IMG/VR virus record: IMGVR_UViG_3300022848_000777
Coordinates: 64,001-128,000 of that record
Origin: a virus
Length of the DNA stretch: 64,000 nt
Direction: 5' to 3' (one strand)
Shown here one piece after another: positions 23,178 through 61,055 of this stretch. Position numbers and translations under genes: made by a program. The notes below the pieces were generated by a model. That model had not been told where the DNA came from. It saw only the letters and a program-made list of their open reading frames with translations, and made no database searches. Positions within the stretch are counted from its first letter, which is position 1; every line of letters begins with the position of its first letter.

Positions 23178-24668
<1,491 letters not shown>

Positions 24669-34087: not shown

Positions 34088-34678
34088 ATGTCAACTCACC
34101 ATATTGCTACACCGCAGGTTAAATACACCTATGGGTGTATAATGTTATATGTAAAGTATTATAACCTACAGTTCACTCACACATGGATACCTGAAAAGCA
34201 CATATTTAATGATACTTCTAATATGTATGGGCTTGAATCATACCCACACATTACACTTCTAAGTAATGTTTTGGCTGGGGTTAGTAGAAGTACAGTAGAG
34301 AATGTCTTAAATAAGATTAACCTACCACCGAATCTCAAACTTGAAACAAAATTGAGCAGGTTCGATGCAAACTCAAAGGGGGCAGTTCCGCTGAAATTTG
34401 ATGTAATCGAATCAGATACCACTAATCAGTTGAATGATATTCATAAACTCTTAAAAGAGGAAATTCCAAATGAGTGTGAATATGATGAGTATCACCCACA
34501 TATGACAATTGGATATGTAAAGGATAGGCATAGTAATCATTATGGTAATAATTCAGATGGTAAAAATATCATATCCCATACACTCAAAGCAAAGAACAAA
34601 AAGTATCAAATATTAGATACCATATACCCAGTCTATTCGACACCCAATGGTGATGTTTGGATAATTAATAACAATTAA
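34088..34678 (+). CDS. 2H phosphoesterase (T4 57B/Acb1-like)
   Basis: Two HxT motifs: PHITL and YHPHMTIGY. Confidence 0.75.
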   Translation: MSTHHIATPQVKYTYGCIMLYVKYYNLQFTHTWIPEKHIFNDTSNMYGLESYPHITLLSNVLAGVSRSTVENVLNKINLPPNLKLETKLSRFDANSKGAVPLKFDVIESDTTNQLNDIHKLLKEEIPNECEYDEYHPHMTIGYVKDRHSNHYGNNSDGKNIISHTLKAKNKKYQILDTIYPVYSTPNGDVWIINNN

Positions 34679-34722: not shown

Positions 34723-34772
34723 TTACTGTAATAAAAGATAGGATATAAAGAAACAACGAGAATAATAAAGTG

Positions 34773-35276
34773 ATGACAAACAAAGAAAGAGCATTAATGG
34801 TGGCAGAAGTAGCACACCGCAATCAAACCTATGATATATACCCATACACATATCATGTTAAACGAGTTGCAAATCGAGCTGAATCTTTAGGGTATGATGA
34901 GGCTATTGTGATTTCATGTATATTACATGACACATTAGAAGATACTGATCTTTCGTATAAAGATCTTAGAAAGGCATTTGGTGTGGAAGTGGCGGAGATT
35001 GTATATTGTGTTACTGATGAACTAGGCCGTAATCGTATTGAAAAGAAACAAAAGACATTTCCGAAAATAAAATCTAATTGGAAGGCCACAGTTGTTAAGA
35101 TATGTGATCGAATTGAAAATGTAACTCAATCACTGCAATATAATGAAGCAAAGCTTAAAATGTATAAAAGTGAGCATAAATATTTTGTTGAGGCAATATC
35201 CAATCCACATCACCCACAAGATGAGGTGGGTAAGGCTTGGGGAGTGTTAAATGATTTAATGAATACAAATAAATAA
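34773..35276 (+). CDS. RelA/SpoT-type HD hydrolase (Mesh1/SAH-like)
   Basis: AH..Q, PY..H, LHDTLEDT, FG..V and VKICDR..N motifs. Confidence 0.85.
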   Translation: MTNKERALMVAEVAHRNQTYDIYPYTYHVKRVANRAESLGYDEAIVISCILHDTLEDTDLSYKDLRKAFGVEVAEIVYCVTDELGRNRIEKKQKTFPKIKSNWKATVVKICDRIENVTQSLQYNEAKLKMYKSEHKYFVEAISNPHHPQDEVGKAWGVLNDLMNTNK

Positions 35277-37904: not shown

Positions 37905-38306
37905 ATGACATTACTTTGGCTTGATGATATGAGAAACCCATTCATTGATAACTGGTTGCGAGATTACGCACCACGATTTATTGATGAAGAAGTGATTTGG
38001 GTTAGGAGTTACTTAGAATTCACCGATTGGATCAATACTAATGGATTGCCTGATATGATATGTTTTGATCACGATTTAGGTGAGGACGTTGCTAGAGATA
38101 AAGTATCCAATGGACTGAGTAAACGACAAGCTAGGATTCAAAAACGTGAAACAATTAGTGGATTTGAGTGTGCCAAATGGTTAGTTGATTATTGTATTGA
38201 TAATAATGATGAATTACCACAATGGTCTGTGCAAAGTGCAAACCCCGTAGGAAGGGATAATATAAATGGGTTGCTTAACAATTACCGTAACCATTGTAGT
38301 GAATGA
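37905..38306 (+). CDS. cyclic-phosphate-processing receiver-like domain protein
   Basis: LWLDD.R.P, FDHDLG, G.ECAKWL and SANPVG motifs. Confidence 0.7.
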   Translation: MTLLWLDDMRNPFIDNWLRDYAPRFIDEEVIWVRSYLEFTDWINTNGLPDMICFDHDLGEDVARDKVSNGLSKRQARIQKRETISGFECAKWLVDYCIDNNDELPQWSVQSANPVGRDNINGLLNNYRNHCSE

Positions 38307-43341: not shown

Positions 43342-43572
43342 ATGGGAAAAGTTATTTTTATAGGTGAAGGGCCTACAGGTGAAAAGCCAGTTGAGTTTAC
43401 GCATCGTTCAAATGGAACGACGGGTTGGGTTAAATTGAGTACCACACCAATAATTCGTGGGCAAGTAATATACCTTGGCGCGTGTGATTATGATGGTGAT
43501 ATGTTTGCGGTGAAATGGGATTCAGGGTCTATTGACATTTATAAAGGACACCTCAATTCAGGAAATTTCTAA
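43342..43572 (+). CDS. hypothetical protein
   Basis: 76-aa ORF. Confidence 0.6.
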   Translation: MGKVIFIGEGPTGEKPVEFTHRSNGTTGWVKLSTTPIIRGQVIYLGACDYDGDMFAVKWDSGSIDIYKGHLNSGNF

Positions 43573-43584
43573 GCAAAAGATAAA

Positions 43585-43992
43585 ATGAAAGATACACTTA
43601 TAGAATTTGAAACCGCAAGGTTAGCTAAAGAAAAAGGGTTTAAAAATAAAAGTAATTATTACAATGGTGCTGGAGAGTTAATAATTCCTAATCATAACCA
43701 TTCTAATAATATGATGCAAAGATTTAGATTTGAAGCACCAACTCAATCATTATTACAGAAATGGTTAAGAAAAAAATATGATATTTATGTTGAAGTAGCT
43801 CTAGATTATGGATACTATAACGATGCCGATGTAAAAGAAACCTATGGCATTCATGGATTTGTGTTTGAAATAGTAAATAAAGGCAAGGAAAAAACCGAGG
43901 ATTCTCAGCTTTATAAAACATACGAAGAAGCATTAGAGAAAGGATTAATGGAAGCATTAAAAATAATAGATATTCAAACAAATAACAACTAA
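43585..43992 (+). CDS. hypothetical protein, paralog of 25665-26117
   Basis: FETARLAKEKGF, APTQSLLQKWLR and YEEALEKGL motifs. Confidence 0.7.
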   Translation: MKDTLIEFETARLAKEKGFKNKSNYYNGAGELIIPNHNHSNNMMQRFRFEAPTQSLLQKWLRKKYDIYVEVALDYGYYNDADVKETYGIHGFVFEIVNKGKEKTEDSQLYKTYEEALEKGLMEALKIIDIQTNNN

Positions 43993-44003
43993 CAACTAAC
44001 AGT

Positions 44004-44216
44004 ATGGACAAGTTCAATCAGTTAACAGATGAATGTATATCAAGATCCCTTAATTGTTCAATAACTTATCAAAGGATAAACGACTTCTCAGTTGAAATAT
44101 ACAAGGGTTATGGATCTAACTATGGAATAGTATTTTACACCGATGGTCATATTAATCCAAAAAAGGCTATTAAAAAAGCATTACAATTTCTTTCGAAGCG
44201 AACAGGAGTAGAGTAG
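44004..44216 (+). CDS. hypothetical protein
   Basis: 70-aa ORF. Confidence 0.55.
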   Translation: MDKFNQLTDECISRSLNCSITYQRINDFSVEIYKGYGSNYGIVFYTDGHINPKKAIKKALQFLSKRTGVE

Positions 44217-44810
44217 AGAGTGCATCGGAATTAGCAGATGGGGACATAGTTGTAGCATAAATCAACGATATCTATCAGAATACATACATATACCACTCAT
44301 AAAGAGATATTACGAAAACGAGTCATATATGTGTGTTTACGTTATTCATAATTTTAGGGGATTGTTATTATCAGACTAATAATATATCAGTACATTCATT
44401 GCGGATATGACAATCTCCATTAAAAAACAACAAAGGGTATGGTAAGGGTGGGAACACTAAACCATTCAGGAATAGGGTAGCATACTACACATTCTTTTCG
44501 ATTTGGCAAAAAAAATCCAATAGAAAAACTCTATTAGCTGATAGACACCCTCTATCACGTCAATTTACATAGATATTATCTATCACATAGACAGCCTCTA
44601 TGGATATTCCCGTGCCGCAAATCCTGTATTGATAGTATGTAACTGCTGATTATCAGTGAGTTAGACTACTTTGATGGCTTATAGGGATAGAATCAAAATC
44701 GCAATTAGGGCCATCCAGTGGGGTTTCGGTGCATAATTCACTATTTTGGGGTGATTCATATAGATAAATAGTATGAGAATCTGAGCCATCAAAAGAAAAT
44801 GGCTTAATAA

Positions 44811-45610
44811 TTTGGCTATTTCAATTATTATTCGTACCTTTGTAGGGAATTTGGTGTTAATTTTCGAAAATCGGTAGGAATCCAATAATGACTAAAGATT
44901 AATTTGGCCATTTCAACTATTATTCGTATCTTTAGAGGGGGGCTTGATGCTAAATTTATTATAAAACAACCAATACAGGCGATCTATTGGGGTGGAGACT
45001 ACTTTGATGGCTTATAGAGACGAGGAAATTGTTTAGAAATCCAAAATGGCTATATATCACCCTCTGACTATGCTGCGACATCAATAAAATCTATTAGAAA
45101 TCCAATAGAGTGGTGTGATTATCAGTATATTACAGTAATCAGAATGGCATAAGAATCCAATAGTATCTCAGTGCGCCGTAGGAATCCAATAATGACTAAT
45201 TATTGATTTGGATATCTCAATTATTTTTCGTAACTTAGGATGGGATGGTCATGCGACTGAATTATTAATATGGCATGGGAATCCAATAATGACTAAAGAT
45301 TAATTTGGCCATTTCAATTATTTTTCGTAACTTAGGATGGGATGGTCATGCGACTTAATTTGTGATCTGCCGTAGGAATCCAATAATGGCTAAAGATTGA
45401 TAGGAATCCAATAGTGGTTATCTATTAATAGGAATCCAATAATGGCTAAAAATTGATTTGGCCATCTCGATTATTTTTCGTAACTTTGGATGGGACGGTC
45501 ACCTCACGTGTCCAGTTGGGAATCCAATAATGGCTAAAAATTGATTTGGTTAATTCAATTATTTTTCGTAACTTTGGATGGGACGGTCACTACCCGTATC
45601 CCGACCGATC
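44811..45610 (+). repeat. tandem array of six promoter-like units with GGAATCCAATA repeats
   Basis: TTTGG at 44811, 44903, 45207, 45304, 45457 and 45545, each with a -7-like box 24 nt downstream; ten exact AATCCAATA copies in 44514-45529. Confidence 0.9.
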
Positions 45611-45792
45611 GATACATAACAAATTATAATATTATATAACATGAATATATCGATATCATCTATTCGCATTATAAATTAGGTAATTATTGATATTATCCGT
45701 ATATTGCAATGTAAGATTGAGAAATCGTTAAGAGAGAAAGTTAAGAGAGTGTTATTAAGTTTATAAACCACACTAACTAAATTGATTAAACT

Positions 45793-45969
45793 ATGAGAGT
45801 AACAATATCAATCGGAGATCGAATTTATGAGCAAGGAACTCATCGATCAGCACTCATATATGAAGTGATTAGTCCAACTCATAGTGTGCCAGTCTTTGAT
45901 CCTACAGTGGAGCAACGAAGATTATTAAGAATTGAAGTATTGAATTTAGAAACTAATCCAAAACGATAA
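45793..45969 (+). CDS. hypothetical protein (not in the ORF track)
   Basis: 58-aa ORF after the promoter at 45676-45706; TAATG-coupled to the next ORF. Confidence 0.5.
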   Translation: MRVTISIGDRIYEQGTHRSALIYEVISPTHSVPVFDPTVEQRRLLRIEVLNLETNPKR

Positions 45970-46151
45970 TGAACACTCCAAAACTTTCATTAAACCAACT
46001 CAAGTCTAATTACCTTTTGTTACGAGGTCAATACCTTTCCACTGCACCAATGAATGAAATCGAAATTGACACTCTATGGTCAACATGGGCAGAACTTCAA
46101 AAGTTAGGTTGGAATTGGGCTAAGATCGAAGATAGCCAACTAAGAGATTAA
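45969..46151 (+). CDS. hypothetical protein
   Basis: 60-aa ORF. Confidence 0.55.
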   Translation: MNTPKLSLNQLKSNYLLLRGQYLSTAPMNEIEIDTLWSTWAELQKLGWNWAKIEDSQLRD

Positions 46152-46240
46152 TTAACAATTTGGTAACATACTAAATTAGGATATCATATCATCTATTATT
46201 ACCTTAGTGGTGTTGGGTTGAGAGAGTAATCCTTCCCAAT
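46152..46240 (+). promoter_or_regulatory. promoter-hairpin module
   Basis: TTAACA-N5-GTAACA, TTAGG, TACCTTAG and a TTGGG...CCCAA stem. Confidence 0.85.
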
Positions 46241-46257
46241 TAAAAATCATCAGAATT

Positions 46258-46578
46258 ATGGAAAAGCTAATGAGATCATCAAATGGAGATTACAACTATC
46301 ACTTTCGATGGTGTAACGAAGAAGGTTTCTACGTTGGATTTAATGATGTATGGGCACCTAATAAAAAAGTGGCTGTGAAATTAGCGAGGGCTATGGAAAC
46401 CAAAGCACATTGGGCAGCATGGGATGGGATGAAATACATTACAGTTCCAAATGAAATTGTGAATGGTGAGCATTGCTTCCGTATGAAAGGGATGTATGTA
46501 GTGACTAGCTCGATGAAGCGAGCAACACACAAACATTCAAAATTGATGACTCGAATAGGTAATATGTTAACTTATTAA
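46258..46578 (+). CDS. hypothetical protein
   Basis: 106-aa ORF. Confidence 0.65.
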   Translation: MEKLMRSSNGDYNYHFRWCNEEGFYVGFNDVWAPNKKVAVKLARAMETKAHWAAWDGMKYITVPNEIVNGEHCFRMKGMYVVTSSMKRATHKHSKLMTRIGNMLTY

Positions 46579-46585
46579 AACAACT

Positions 46586-46774
46586 ATGATAAGATATATA
46601 GTAAAGGACGTTGAAAAAAACAAGTATTACGCTGGGGATAGTTACGGCTGTGGTTGGTGTGATAGGCAGAGAATGGCTGACACATTTGAAACTAAAGAAC
46701 TTGCAATGATTTTTTTAGATGGAGAGCCTTACTCATGGTATGCAATTGAAGAAATTTACATAGTATGTCGTTAG
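46586..46774 (+). CDS. hypothetical protein
   Basis: 62-aa ORF. Confidence 0.55.
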   Translation: MIRYIVKDVEKNKYYAGDSYGCGWCDRQRMADTFETKELAMIFLDGEPYSWYAIEEIYIVCR

Positions 46775-46782
46775 TATTAAAC

Positions 46783-46870
46783 TTAACAATTTGGTAACAT
46801 ACTAAATTAGGATATGATAACAGCTACCCGTACCTTAGTGGTGTTGGGTTGGGGAAGTAACCCCCTCATT
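46783..46870 (+). promoter_or_regulatory. promoter-hairpin module
   Basis: TTAACA-N5-GTAACA, TTAGG, TACCTTAG and GGGG-AAGTAA-CCCC. Confidence 0.85.
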
Positions 46871-46885
46871 TAAAAACTATCAGAT

Positions 46886-47125
46886 ATGAATTTTAAACCA
46901 CTATATCAATTTTGCGACAAGTACGATATTCCACTATCCGAAGCGACTTCTATTACCAACTTGACACTTATCGTAAATAACCGAGTGATGTCAAATCTAA
47001 GTGATATGCACGGTCTTATACCAACACACAGTAAGCTAAATGCAATGAAGGATTTTATTTCAGCATTTAACACAGCAATCAAAGTAGCAACGTGTACCAA
47101 CATATACCAACGTTCACATAATTAA
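46886..47125 (+). CDS. hypothetical protein
   Basis: 79-aa ORF. Confidence 0.6.
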   Translation: MNFKPLYQFCDKYDIPLSEATSITNLTLIVNNRVMSNLSDMHGLIPTHSKLNAMKDFISAFNTAIKVATCTNIYQRSHN

Positions 47126-47137
47126 AAATTCAAAAAT

Positions 47138-47410
47138 ATGACATTTAAAGACTTTTTAAAAAAGCATGATTTTACTCCAATGGATTTAGTAAATCCTGAG
47201 TTGATGGATATCATAGTAAACAGTTACGGTGCTGAGTGTAAAAATGAAGGCATGGTGGCGATATTAGATATTGTAGAGGAAAAGCAAACAGAAGTAGAGG
47301 CGGTATTAGATATTGTAGAGGGAAAGCAAAACGACCTAAAGGAAATCGAGGATACTGAGATATTCGATGATGATGCGGATTCAGCAATGTATAATCACTA
47401 CGTCAGTTAA
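47138..47410 (+). CDS. acidic hypothetical protein with an internal LDIVE.KQ duplication
   Basis: 90-aa ORF. Confidence 0.6.
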   Translation: MTFKDFLKKHDFTPMDLVNPELMDIIVNSYGAECKNEGMVAILDIVEEKQTEVEAVLDIVEGKQNDLKEIEDTEIFDDDADSAMYNHYVS

Positions 47411-47495
47411 CAATTTGGTAACATACTAAATTAGGATATATCGAATATATTCATTATCTTTATTTTGTTGGGTTGAGAGAGTAATCCTTCCCATT
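47407..47495 (+). promoter_or_regulatory. promoter-hairpin module
   Basis: TTAACA-N5-GTAACA, TTAGG, TATCTTTA and a hairpin. Confidence 0.85.
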
Positions 47496-47509
47496 TAAAA
47501 ACCCCCATT

Positions 47510-47680
47510 ATGAAAGAAGTTATCAATAACATTGAAGTTGAGTTAAGTGGTTCGATAGTTTACATCAACAATCTCAATGGTGATTTGCTCAGAGCAATCG
47601 ATGTTAATCCCAATTCAGCGGTCACTGATTATAAGAACTTGGTAATTCGATTAAAGAAAGCTAACAAGCATTACATTTAA
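47510..47680 (+). CDS. hypothetical protein (not in the ORF track)
   Basis: 56-aa ORF between two promoter modules. Confidence 0.55.
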   Translation: MKEVINNIEVELSGSIVYINNLNGDLLRAIDVNPNSAVTDYKNLVIRLKKANKHYI

Positions 47681-47732
47681 CAATCTATTAACATTGGAAA
47701 TTAGGATATGATAGTAATTATGCGTATCTTAG
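47677..47732 (+). promoter_or_regulatory. TTAACA-N5-TTAACA promoter module
   Basis: Tandem hexamer, TTAGG and CGTATCTTAG. Confidence 0.8.
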
Positions 47733-47917
47733 TGGTGTTGAGTGAGTGACTAACCCTTTAAAGATATTAATTATGATAGACTATAATTTACTAAATGATG
47801 AAGATGATGATTTAACAATCAGTAAGTTTGAAGCGGCCACCGCAATTGGATTGGTGGTATTTTTTGTAGTAACGACAATATTAAATAACATAACATAACC
47901 CAATTAAAAATTTAATT

Positions 47918-51567: not shown

Positions 51568-51642
51568 ACGTTAAGGCTATGTGTAGTGCCAAAATTTTAA
51601 AATAAAATTAGGTAGTTCAACATATTATTCGTATATTTACAA

Positions 51643-51980
51643 GATGTATAGAAGTCGGCAGCGAATCGACTAATACATTACAGACATTCTTGTACGTCCA
51701 ATAGCCTTTGTGCTGTATCGCTCGGAATGTTTAATTGAAAGCCGCTAGAGAGGGTTCTTAGAAAGCGGCACGGGTTTGCGAAAGGAACGCCCACTAAGAA
51801 GGTTTATTACACAACCTATAGAGTTCTGAGCATCGGATTGTAATTAAACGAAGCACCTAATAACGAAGGCTCAATGAAGGTTAAGCATATCGTTTAAAGG
51901 TATCGCCCTACGTAGTTTCGCAACGAACTTCTTAGGGATTGCTATACCTTTAACTCAGGTCTAAATCAGGTATAGCATAG
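51643..51980 (+). ncRNA. candidate structured non-coding RNA
   Basis: Promoter (TTAGG 51608, TATATTTA 51632), no ORF of 60 aa or more, raised GC and at least seven helices. Confidence 0.6.
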
Positions 51981-52129
51981 TATTTAAAGTGTACACTAAC
52001 TAGTTTTTCTTTAGATTGGGTGGTAATTGTAAAAAATTACAACAATAAACTTGTGTAGTATAATTTAATTGATTACATTGGTCAAAGATAAGGGGGAAAC
52101 TTAACCCAATAGTGAATTAAATTAAATAA

Positions 52130-60942: not shown

Positions 60943-60949
60943 ATAAACC

Positions 60950-61055
60950 TTAACAATTCCTTAACATTAAAAGCTTGGACATCCCAAGCTTTTTTCGTAT
61001 CTTTATTTTGTTGGGTTGGGGAAGTAACCTCACCAATTTAAAATTCAAAGATATG
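60950..61055 (+). repeat. promoter-hairpin module (near-identical to 24566-24671)
   Basis: 106 bp with 6 mismatches. Confidence 0.95.

Follow-up and report, generated by a model that had tools for sequence, protein, structure and literature searches.

What purpose might be served by a series of near-identical promoters, all facing the same way and with no gene between them, in the genome of a phage? The question is raised by an array at positions 44811-45610 of a 64,000-nucleotide stretch of viral DNA (hereafter the window), which corresponds to bases 64001-128000 of the 174,750-bp IMG/VR virus contig IMGVR_UViG_3300022848_000777. The source phage, uncultured and ~175 kb in size, is of the T4 type and has promoters of the Bacteroidota type; its genome as a whole has a GC content of 33% and carries essentially all of its genes on the + strand. 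In this study, we have examined the array together with its surroundings and with the genomes of related phages. Our results indicate that its most likely role is to drive or regulate early transcription, and that it could double as a replication origin. More precisely, we give a probability of about 0.5 to the reading that it is a tandem early-promoter battery, furnished with sites for a regulator, which would read into a block of small ORFan genes.

The repetition itself is far from what chance would produce. The pattern TTTGG-N19-TAnCTT starts at 44811, 44903, 45207, 45304, 45457 and 45545; these six sites belong to a total of seven in the window, against a mean of 0.30 in shuffled sequences, none of which reached seven, and the entire genome holds seven on the + strand and 0 on the - strand. 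The box AATCCAATA occurs in ten exact + strand copies within 44514-45529, compared with seven on the + strand of the remaining genome; counted on both strands of the window there are 13, where shuffles gave 2.3 on average and 7 at most. Two further elements are found in the array and nowhere else in the genome, namely the 19-nt element GGAATCCAATAATGRCTAA (six copies) and the transcript start GATGGGAYGGTCA (four copies). All array elements within 44514-45610 lie on the + strand. They are contained in a control hub of 1576 nt (44217-45792, + strand), which is the largest gap of the genome that is free of both open reading frames (ORFs) and tRNAs, with no + strand ORF of at least 45 amino acids (aa). 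The gaps that rank next are tRNA regions, and for the short ORFs of the hub, on either strand, no PHROG match was found. The original prediction, made from the letters of the window, had described the six promoters, the ten boxes (several of them promoter-less), the transcript start common to four units and the lack of a + strand ORF, and in all these respects it was borne out. Its list can be extended by a degenerate box (~45037) and by a seventh promoter, a weaker one, at 45676-45705.

The core of the units is of a recognizable class. Promoters of Bacteroidetes follow a consensus with TTTG at -33, TAnnTTTG (TAHHTTTG) at -7 and a G at -5 (PMC6847099). TTTG-N20-TA is present in all six units, in keeping with a -33 spacing of about 19-21 nt, and the -7 consensus is exact in units 1, 5 and 6 (TACCTTTG, TAACTTTG) and departs by one mismatch in units 2-4. 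The array units are thus predicted to be near-consensus promoters of the Bacteroidota sigma-A (sigma-ABfr) type. With up to five mismatches allowed, the 23-position unit consensus TTTGGnnAnTTCAAnTATTnTTCGTAnnTT has 19 sites in the genome, every one on the + strand (0 on the -), and the array copies are its best matches (0-2 mismatches). A looser core pattern gives 22 sites on + versus 0 on -, seven of which fall within the 866 nt of 44811-45676; outside the array, no two core-promoter sites of the genome are less than 150 nt apart. The same core is restricted to the gene strand in relatives (+/- counts of 12/0, 5/0 and 0/8), where it stands directly ahead of start codons. A tandem pair of core promoters also occurs in the related genome G001, at 43904-44021 (L097 1405-1530), directly before a gene for a gp32-type single-strand DNA-binding protein (SSB), and its spacing of 88 nt equals that of array units 5 and 6. 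By the Bacteroidota -7 rule, transcripts of the array should start at the first G of GGGAYGG, and such predicted starts in a G cluster are specific to the hub promoters. For the six units, the expected start positions are about 44846, 44938, 45242, 45339, 45493 and 45581. Mini-ORFs beginning at the ATG of GATGGGA were considered and dropped, since their peptides are not conserved and the predicted start falls downstream of this ATG.

Upstream of the -33 element, at about -62..-52, the units carry the 11-nt private box GGAATCCAATA; for AATCCAATA, the position is -60..-52. Many other core promoters of this genome have TTAACA-N5-TTAACA just upstream, at about -61..-45, so the two kinds of promoter share an identical core and an upstream element in the same position. 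The array box differs in being of another sequence, in being single rather than a direct repeat with an 11-nt period, and in being confined to one locus and amplified there. The proposal that the upstream motif of the array replaces the TTAACA boxes used elsewhere therefore holds for promoters that share the core. The same is only partly true of the claim of a private operator: the motif is private, but its location fits the position of an activator site or an UP element and not that of a classical repressor operator, which would overlap the core.

Considered unit by unit, the array is a mixture of intact and decaying copies. Its distal part (44514..44614) has a box at 44514 and imperfect ATAGA..TCTAT palindromes, which are further candidate protein-binding sites. 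Unit 1 (44785..44876, +) has a promoter with no mismatch to the core consensus, TTTGG(44811)-N19-TACCTTTG, including an exact TAHHTTTG at -7; upstream it has kept AAAATGGCTTAATAA alone, without the AATCCAATA box. Unit 2 (44877..44943, +) combines the box GGAATCCAATAATGACTAA with the promoter at 44903 and a GGGGGG start. It is followed by a spacer of decayed units (44944..45180, +), in which promoter-less boxes remain at ~45037 (degenerate), 45099 and 45154, together with a 25-nt repeat, AGACTACTTTGATGGCTTATAGRGA, whose second copy is at 44663, and TGATTATCAG palindromes; the predicted fold of this spacer is not better than that of shuffles (z -0.23). In units 3 and 4 (45181..45374, +; period 97 nt), the box and the promoter (45207 and 45304) are followed by the constant start GATGGGATGGTCA and then by tails that have diverged; the heads of the two units are 92% identical and their tails 69%. 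Two promoter-less boxes with a period of 28 nt, GGAATCCAATAATGGCTAAAG and GGAATCCAATAGTGGTTATCT, come next (45375..45430, +). Units 5 and 6 (45431..45615, +; period 88 nt) have the box, an exact TTTG-N20-TAACTTTG at 45457 and 45545, and the constant start GATGGGACGGTCA, after which their tails are unrelated (heads 93% identical, tails 35%). Beyond the boxes of the units there are five to six boxes without a promoter. Promoter-less boxes and degenerate copies occupy the intervals from unit 2 to unit 3 and from unit 4 to unit 5. The spacings between boxes (28, 28, 29, 55, 88, 97 and 97 nt) are neither even nor helically phased.

When units 3-6 are aligned, the first 71 columns, which comprise box and promoter as well as the initial ~10 bases of the transcript, are 89-93% identical, whereas the next 26 columns are 15-35% identical, which is the level of random sequence; the tails of units 3 and 4, as given above, are the exception. 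This contrast is cassette-like in character and would fit homogenization or selection confined to the box and promoter, accompanied by birth and decay of units.

The last unit is adjoined by an A+T-rich stretch (45616..45695), an 80-mer of 16% GC that ranks among the lowest 0.3% of all genomic 80-nt windows without being the most extreme of them; it may serve as a DNA unwinding element, or be no more than an A+T-rich leader. The seventh core promoter, TTAGGTAATTATTGATATTATCCGTATATT (45676..45705, +; genome 109676), is placed 88 nt ahead of the first downstream start codon. Downstream of the array lie eight small ORFan genes of 50-106 aa (45793..47898, +), for none of which a Pfam or PHROG function was found. 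The hub divides two blocks of such small genes, and the ORFs that flank it have no homologues in the relatives; as far as these comparisons go, the flanking genes are all lineage-specific ORFans and the region is hyperplastic. No canonical intrinsic terminator was found between the units or anywhere in 43500-46500, so that transcripts of the array should continue into the eight genes 45793-47898.

Based on these features, we propose that a single hub promoter, conserved in this phage lineage, was amplified in tandem to give the array. Host RNA polymerase would load at six or seven adjacent sites and read through into the ORFan genes, and transcription would be very strong, fast and probably early. 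A single sequence-specific protein may dock at the box and, by activation or by local recruitment, adjust all copies in concert. The array could have arisen when promoter cassettes of a hyperplastic region recombined unequally, and some of its units would already be decaying. The common orientation of the units and their location in front of a block of small lineage-specific genes are consistent with this model. One of the alternatives raised in the original prediction, an RNA-polymerase battery, essentially equals this reading.

Several points weigh against this proposal. No candidate for the box-binding protein was found among 30 neighbouring ORFs searched with Pfam and PHROGs, most of which belong to no family at all. 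The activity and the timing of the promoters are predicted from sequence only. The first downstream gene has a proximal promoter of its own (45676), and six more are not obviously needed. The array was found in no close relative in IMG/VR, the JGI metagenomes or GTDB; as a result, selection for its copy number is not demonstrable. Finally, the array could be a neutral by-product of recombination, and the combination of promoters, direct repeats and an A+T-rich stretch would also suit a replication origin.

The relatives offer insights into how the array arose. With the neighbouring AAA ATPase as query, 260 related IMG/VR contig stretches were confirmed at ~57-64% identity, several of them on contigs 160-187 kb long; among GenBank phages, no related isolate was found, and megablast of the array region against them gave 0 matches. 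Among nine related genomes, six (G001, G004, G005, G006, G008 and G009) have a recognizable gene-free hub with one hub promoter each; G002 and G003 show no hub. These hubs are located at G001 L119 5600-6600, G009 L151 1540-2310, G008 L154 650-1850, G006 L152 1000-1800, G004 L136 9230-9985 (minus) and G005 L144 16870-17230 (minus). For G001, G004 and G005, the same syntenic interval, from the GroEL block to the AAA ATPase, was checked; in G001 and G004 it contains the largest gap of the genome that is free of tRNAs, and in G005 a gap of 349 nt. The hubs of G006, G008 and G009 were defined as box-marked regions. The relatives' hubs have an intrinsic terminator at their start, C-rich CCCACTTT / TTTACCACAAT motifs, TGACA-N5-TGTCA palindromes and a TTAACA-type promoter for the next genes. 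Instead of AATCCAATA they carry GTTATYMACA boxes, which often form a palindrome that ends 14 nt ahead of TTTGG. G001 and G004 have four per hub, against 0.04-0.07 expected, and G005 has a pair; in G006-G009 the boxes are clustered at one or two sites. Perfect DnaA-box 9-mers (TTATCCACA) are present in the hubs of G001, G005 and G009, and GTTATCCACA palindromes were also observed in G001 and G009. As a side observation of this comparison, the relatives' hubs may act, in this lineage of T4-type phages, as an origin that depends on host DnaA or as a sink for DnaA. In the genome studied here, no GTTATYMACA or DnaA-box cluster was found anywhere, the hub included, nor was a phage-encoded DnaA. A phyletic-pattern search for a protein that tracks the GTTATYMACA boxes returned too many candidates to be informative.

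In each relative with a hub, the transcript of the one hub promoter is predicted to start in a G cluster; this is a run of G6-7 in G001, G006, G008 and G009, whereas G004 and G005 have a weaker cluster. The cluster is directly followed by TATATAAAAAAA in G001, G004, G005 and G009, and a similar A-run lies about 70 nt further on in G008. We considered whether TATATAAAAAAA is a general late promoter and rejected this, as it occurs 1-3 times per genome and sits in the hub (G001, G004, G005). The TTCGTATCTTTAGAGGGGGG segment of unit 2 is identical to the G001 hub promoter at 19 of 20 positions and aligns with the hub promoters of all other hub-bearing relatives; on this alignment, unit 2 is the ortholog of their single promoter. 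Part of the 19-nt element (AATGGCTAAA) also precedes the promoter of G009, the one relative in which this position was aligned, and AATCCAATA is placed where the right half of the GTTATYMACA palindrome lies in that genome. Since the relatives have a single orthologous hub promoter, the ancestral state was single and it is this genome that has amplified the hub promoter. As regards copy-number variation among relatives, which the original prediction had suggested to check, an array-bearing relative was not found: exact searches with GGAATCCAATAATGRCTAA returned 2 matches in IMG/VR, 15 in JGI metagenomes and 12 in GTDB, all of them single copies, those in IMG/VR within coding DNA and those in metagenomes without an adjacent promoter or a second box. 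As relatives have tRNA arrays upstream of the same ATPase, the idea that the hub is a tRNA remnant was also entertained; it was rejected because the 27 tRNAs and the tmRNA of this phage lie 22 kb downstream of the array, and ARAGORN found nothing in the window. In G008 (L154 1440-1760) and G006 (L152 1950-2160), a conserved GC-rich block is located downstream of the hub, with the motif ...GGGGGTATTTTCrnGnAAnCCA...GGAAAGTCCCCTCTrAG... and no Rfam match, possibly an undescribed phage RNA.

Among the other explanations, a transcription-activated origin is the one to which we tentatively attach some weight. A phage initiator would recognize the AATCCAATA boxes as its iterons, an R-loop or primer RNA beginning in a G cluster would come from the promoters, and the A+T-rich stretch would unwind. 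This and the promoter-battery reading are mutually compatible. The anatomy is suggestive: the hub is the largest non-coding region of the genome, it contains 10-12 direct repeats of one box (ten exact copies of AATCCAATA, all direct, where at least four direct repeats of a short motif characterize iterons), and the 16%-GC 80-mer lies directly downstream of the last unit. Transcripts are predicted to start in G clusters at all hub promoters, here and in the six relatives, and the TATATAAAAAAA that follows in four of these is otherwise rare in the genomes in which it was counted (G001, G004, G005). The relatives' hubs add clusters of GTTATYMACA, including DnaA-box 9-mers, and the phage encodes a T4 gp32-family SSB, with a precedent for such origins in T4 itself (PMC3016281). 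Nevertheless, the spacing of 28-97 nt is uneven and not helically phased, unlike that of T4 oriE or of plasmid iterons, no initiator gene (DNA-binding or Rep domain) was recognized in the 30 neighbouring ORFs and the phage has no DnaA, this genome lacks the DnaA-box cluster, and the A+T-rich stretch is not its most extreme. GC skew gave no signal; it is uninformative because all genes are on one strand. On anatomical grounds, the relatives' hubs and T4 oriE and oriF lend support to the transcription-primed iteron origin that the original prediction had listed, but the even spacing of iterons is missing. A broader version, to which we give a similarly modest weight, would make the hub the replication origin of the whole lineage: a conserved promoter would fire a G-cluster transcript into an A+T tract, the boxes would be lineage-specific initiator sites, and the priming promoter would have become six-fold here. 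If true, this would be a multi-promoter R-loop origin and the first origin architecture defined for this phage group, with natural switching of box specificity at a fixed promoter (DnaA-box-like in most relatives, AATCCAATA here).

It is unlikely, in our view, that the array is no more than a neutral or selfish by-product, that is, a set of 'empty' cassettes left by recombination, which may fire but whose copy number and extra boxes are unselected. Decayed units and promoter-less boxes do stand among the intact ones, the array is unique to this genome as opposed to the single promoter of each of the six hub-bearing relatives, and insertion and deletion of ORFans through promoter-early stem-loop (PeSL) cassettes is documented in T4-type phages (PMC2839356). 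The head/tail contrast described above would be expected if the cassette alone recombines. But the box is perfectly kept in ten copies, including promoter-less ones, for which recombination of promoter cassettes alone is insufficient; the units lack the stem-loop that defines PeSLs; and a useless stretch of 1.6 kb would be unusual in compact phage genomes. The same contrast, together with the constant-variable-constant layout and one promoter per unit, could speak for a small-RNA array, the leading idea of the original prediction, in which a constant 5' handle (GGGAYGGUCA) would be followed by a variable segment of 17-26 nt serving as guide, decoy or antitoxin mimic. Such a promoter-per-repeat layout recalls type II-C CRISPR arrays. 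We regard this as very unlikely, as there is no terminator or processing signal, and Rfam, run on the gap and on the hubs of four relatives, gave nothing above noise. At 71 nt, the 'repeat' greatly exceeds the size of CRISPR repeats (23-50 nt), and no effector was recognized nearby. There are only ~5 variable segments, among which those of units 3 and 4 are visibly related, as are parts of those of units 5 and 6. The segments had been proposed for comparison with host and phage sequences, and neither the phage genome nor IMG/VR gave a match: no tail has a genome match of at least 12 nt beyond A+T-rich chance matches, and for three segments no exact 22-nt match was found in IMG/VR. The suggestion that several transcript starts can fold was not upheld either; the unit transcripts and the 245-nt unit-2 transcript fold no better than shuffles, with minimum free energies at z -1.5 to +1.0. 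Least credible of all is a protein sink, in which the promoters and boxes, clustered as they are, would sequester RNA polymerase or a DNA-binding factor of the host. Within 1 kb there are indeed 10-12 boxes and one third of all consensus promoters of the genome, but seven promoters per phage genome are negligible against the promoter load of the host until the phage replicates, and the box is repeated in none of 185,579 prokaryote genomes, its 12 single matches comparing with roughly nine by chance.

A number of other observations concern the phage as a whole. It encodes GroEL, RtcB, an RNA ligase and a CCA-adding enzyme. At window 34088-34678, 34770-35276 and 37905-38306 are proteins with 2H-phosphoesterase / Acb1-like, HD and cyclic-phosphate-processing receiver (cREC_REC) domains, respectively, which are candidates for roles in RNA repair or anti-signalling (anti-CBASS-like). 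Two further ORF-free stretches resemble structured RNAs and are candidates for such. One, of 693 nt and relatively GC-rich, lies directly after a core promoter (51608) at window 51568-52260 (genome 115568-116260). The other, of 841 nt without ORF or called tRNA, follows TTAACA-type promoters inside the tRNA region, outside the window (genome 138820-139660; the tmRNA is at 137241-137635). Both ends of the contig (genome 1-300 and 174451-174750) lie within the same ~120-nt coding tandem repeat containing ATAATCCCTGACATTTCAGCACTTAATACTTTCACAAG, so the contig probably closes on itself and the assembly broke there.

The hub is a probable control centre, for early transcription and perhaps for the start of replication, of a large, widespread and uncultured group of aquatic Bacteroidota phages. 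Our comparison provides a clear promoter grammar for this group, in which one host-type core is combined with interchangeable upstream boxes, and it shows a lineage that has swapped its box and amplified its promoter. This also provides candidate strong promoters for the genetics of Bacteroidota.

How does the array compare with known systems? In coliphage T7, the strong host-polymerase promoters A1, A2 and A3 are arranged in tandem within a few hundred bases before the first small early genes, near the genome end that is the first to enter the cell. The array shares with them the single orientation, the absence of genes between promoters and the small genes downstream. It differs in having six to seven copies instead of three, with clear recent duplicates, in the specific upstream box of its units and the extra promoter-less boxes, and in being of the Bacteroidota -33/-7 type. 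The hub is at a contig end in none of the genomes examined, which include G009, scored as 100% complete with direct terminal repeats at its ends. A second precedent is provided by the origins of T4: oriE depends on an early promoter and has a cluster of direct repeats whose role is unproven, and oriF and oriG combine a promoter with a downstream unwinding element (PMC3016281). Both cases have in common promoters, direct repeats, an A+T-rich stretch downstream and replication proteins of the T4 type. The G-cluster starts would, in addition, favour RNA-DNA hybrids here. Compared with oriE, the repeats of the array are unevenly spaced and its promoters are six instead of one. Finally, PeSL cassettes shuffle ORFans in the hyperplastic regions of T4-type phages (PMC2839356), and the array resembles them in its repeated cassettes, whose promoter follows the host-type early consensus and whose upstream part is A+T-rich and conserved, and in its hyperplastic ORFan setting. 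PeSLs, in contrast, have a stem-loop terminator and are dispersed, one per ORFan, whereas the array units have no stem-loop and are adjacent, with no genes between them; the box-bearing unit occurs at this locus only, and only the last units precede a gene. The same genome holds, as a separate observation, two 85-nt promoter cassettes (window 24565-24650 and 60949-61034) that are about 90% identical, each with TTAACA-N5-TTAACA and with a stem-loop, GCTTGGAyATCCCAAGC, between -33 and -7, which is the PeSL layout of T4-type coliphages. In conclusion, the array combines features of known kinds, namely tandem early promoters, PeSL-like cassettes and T4 oriE-like repeats, rather than representing a new kind of system.

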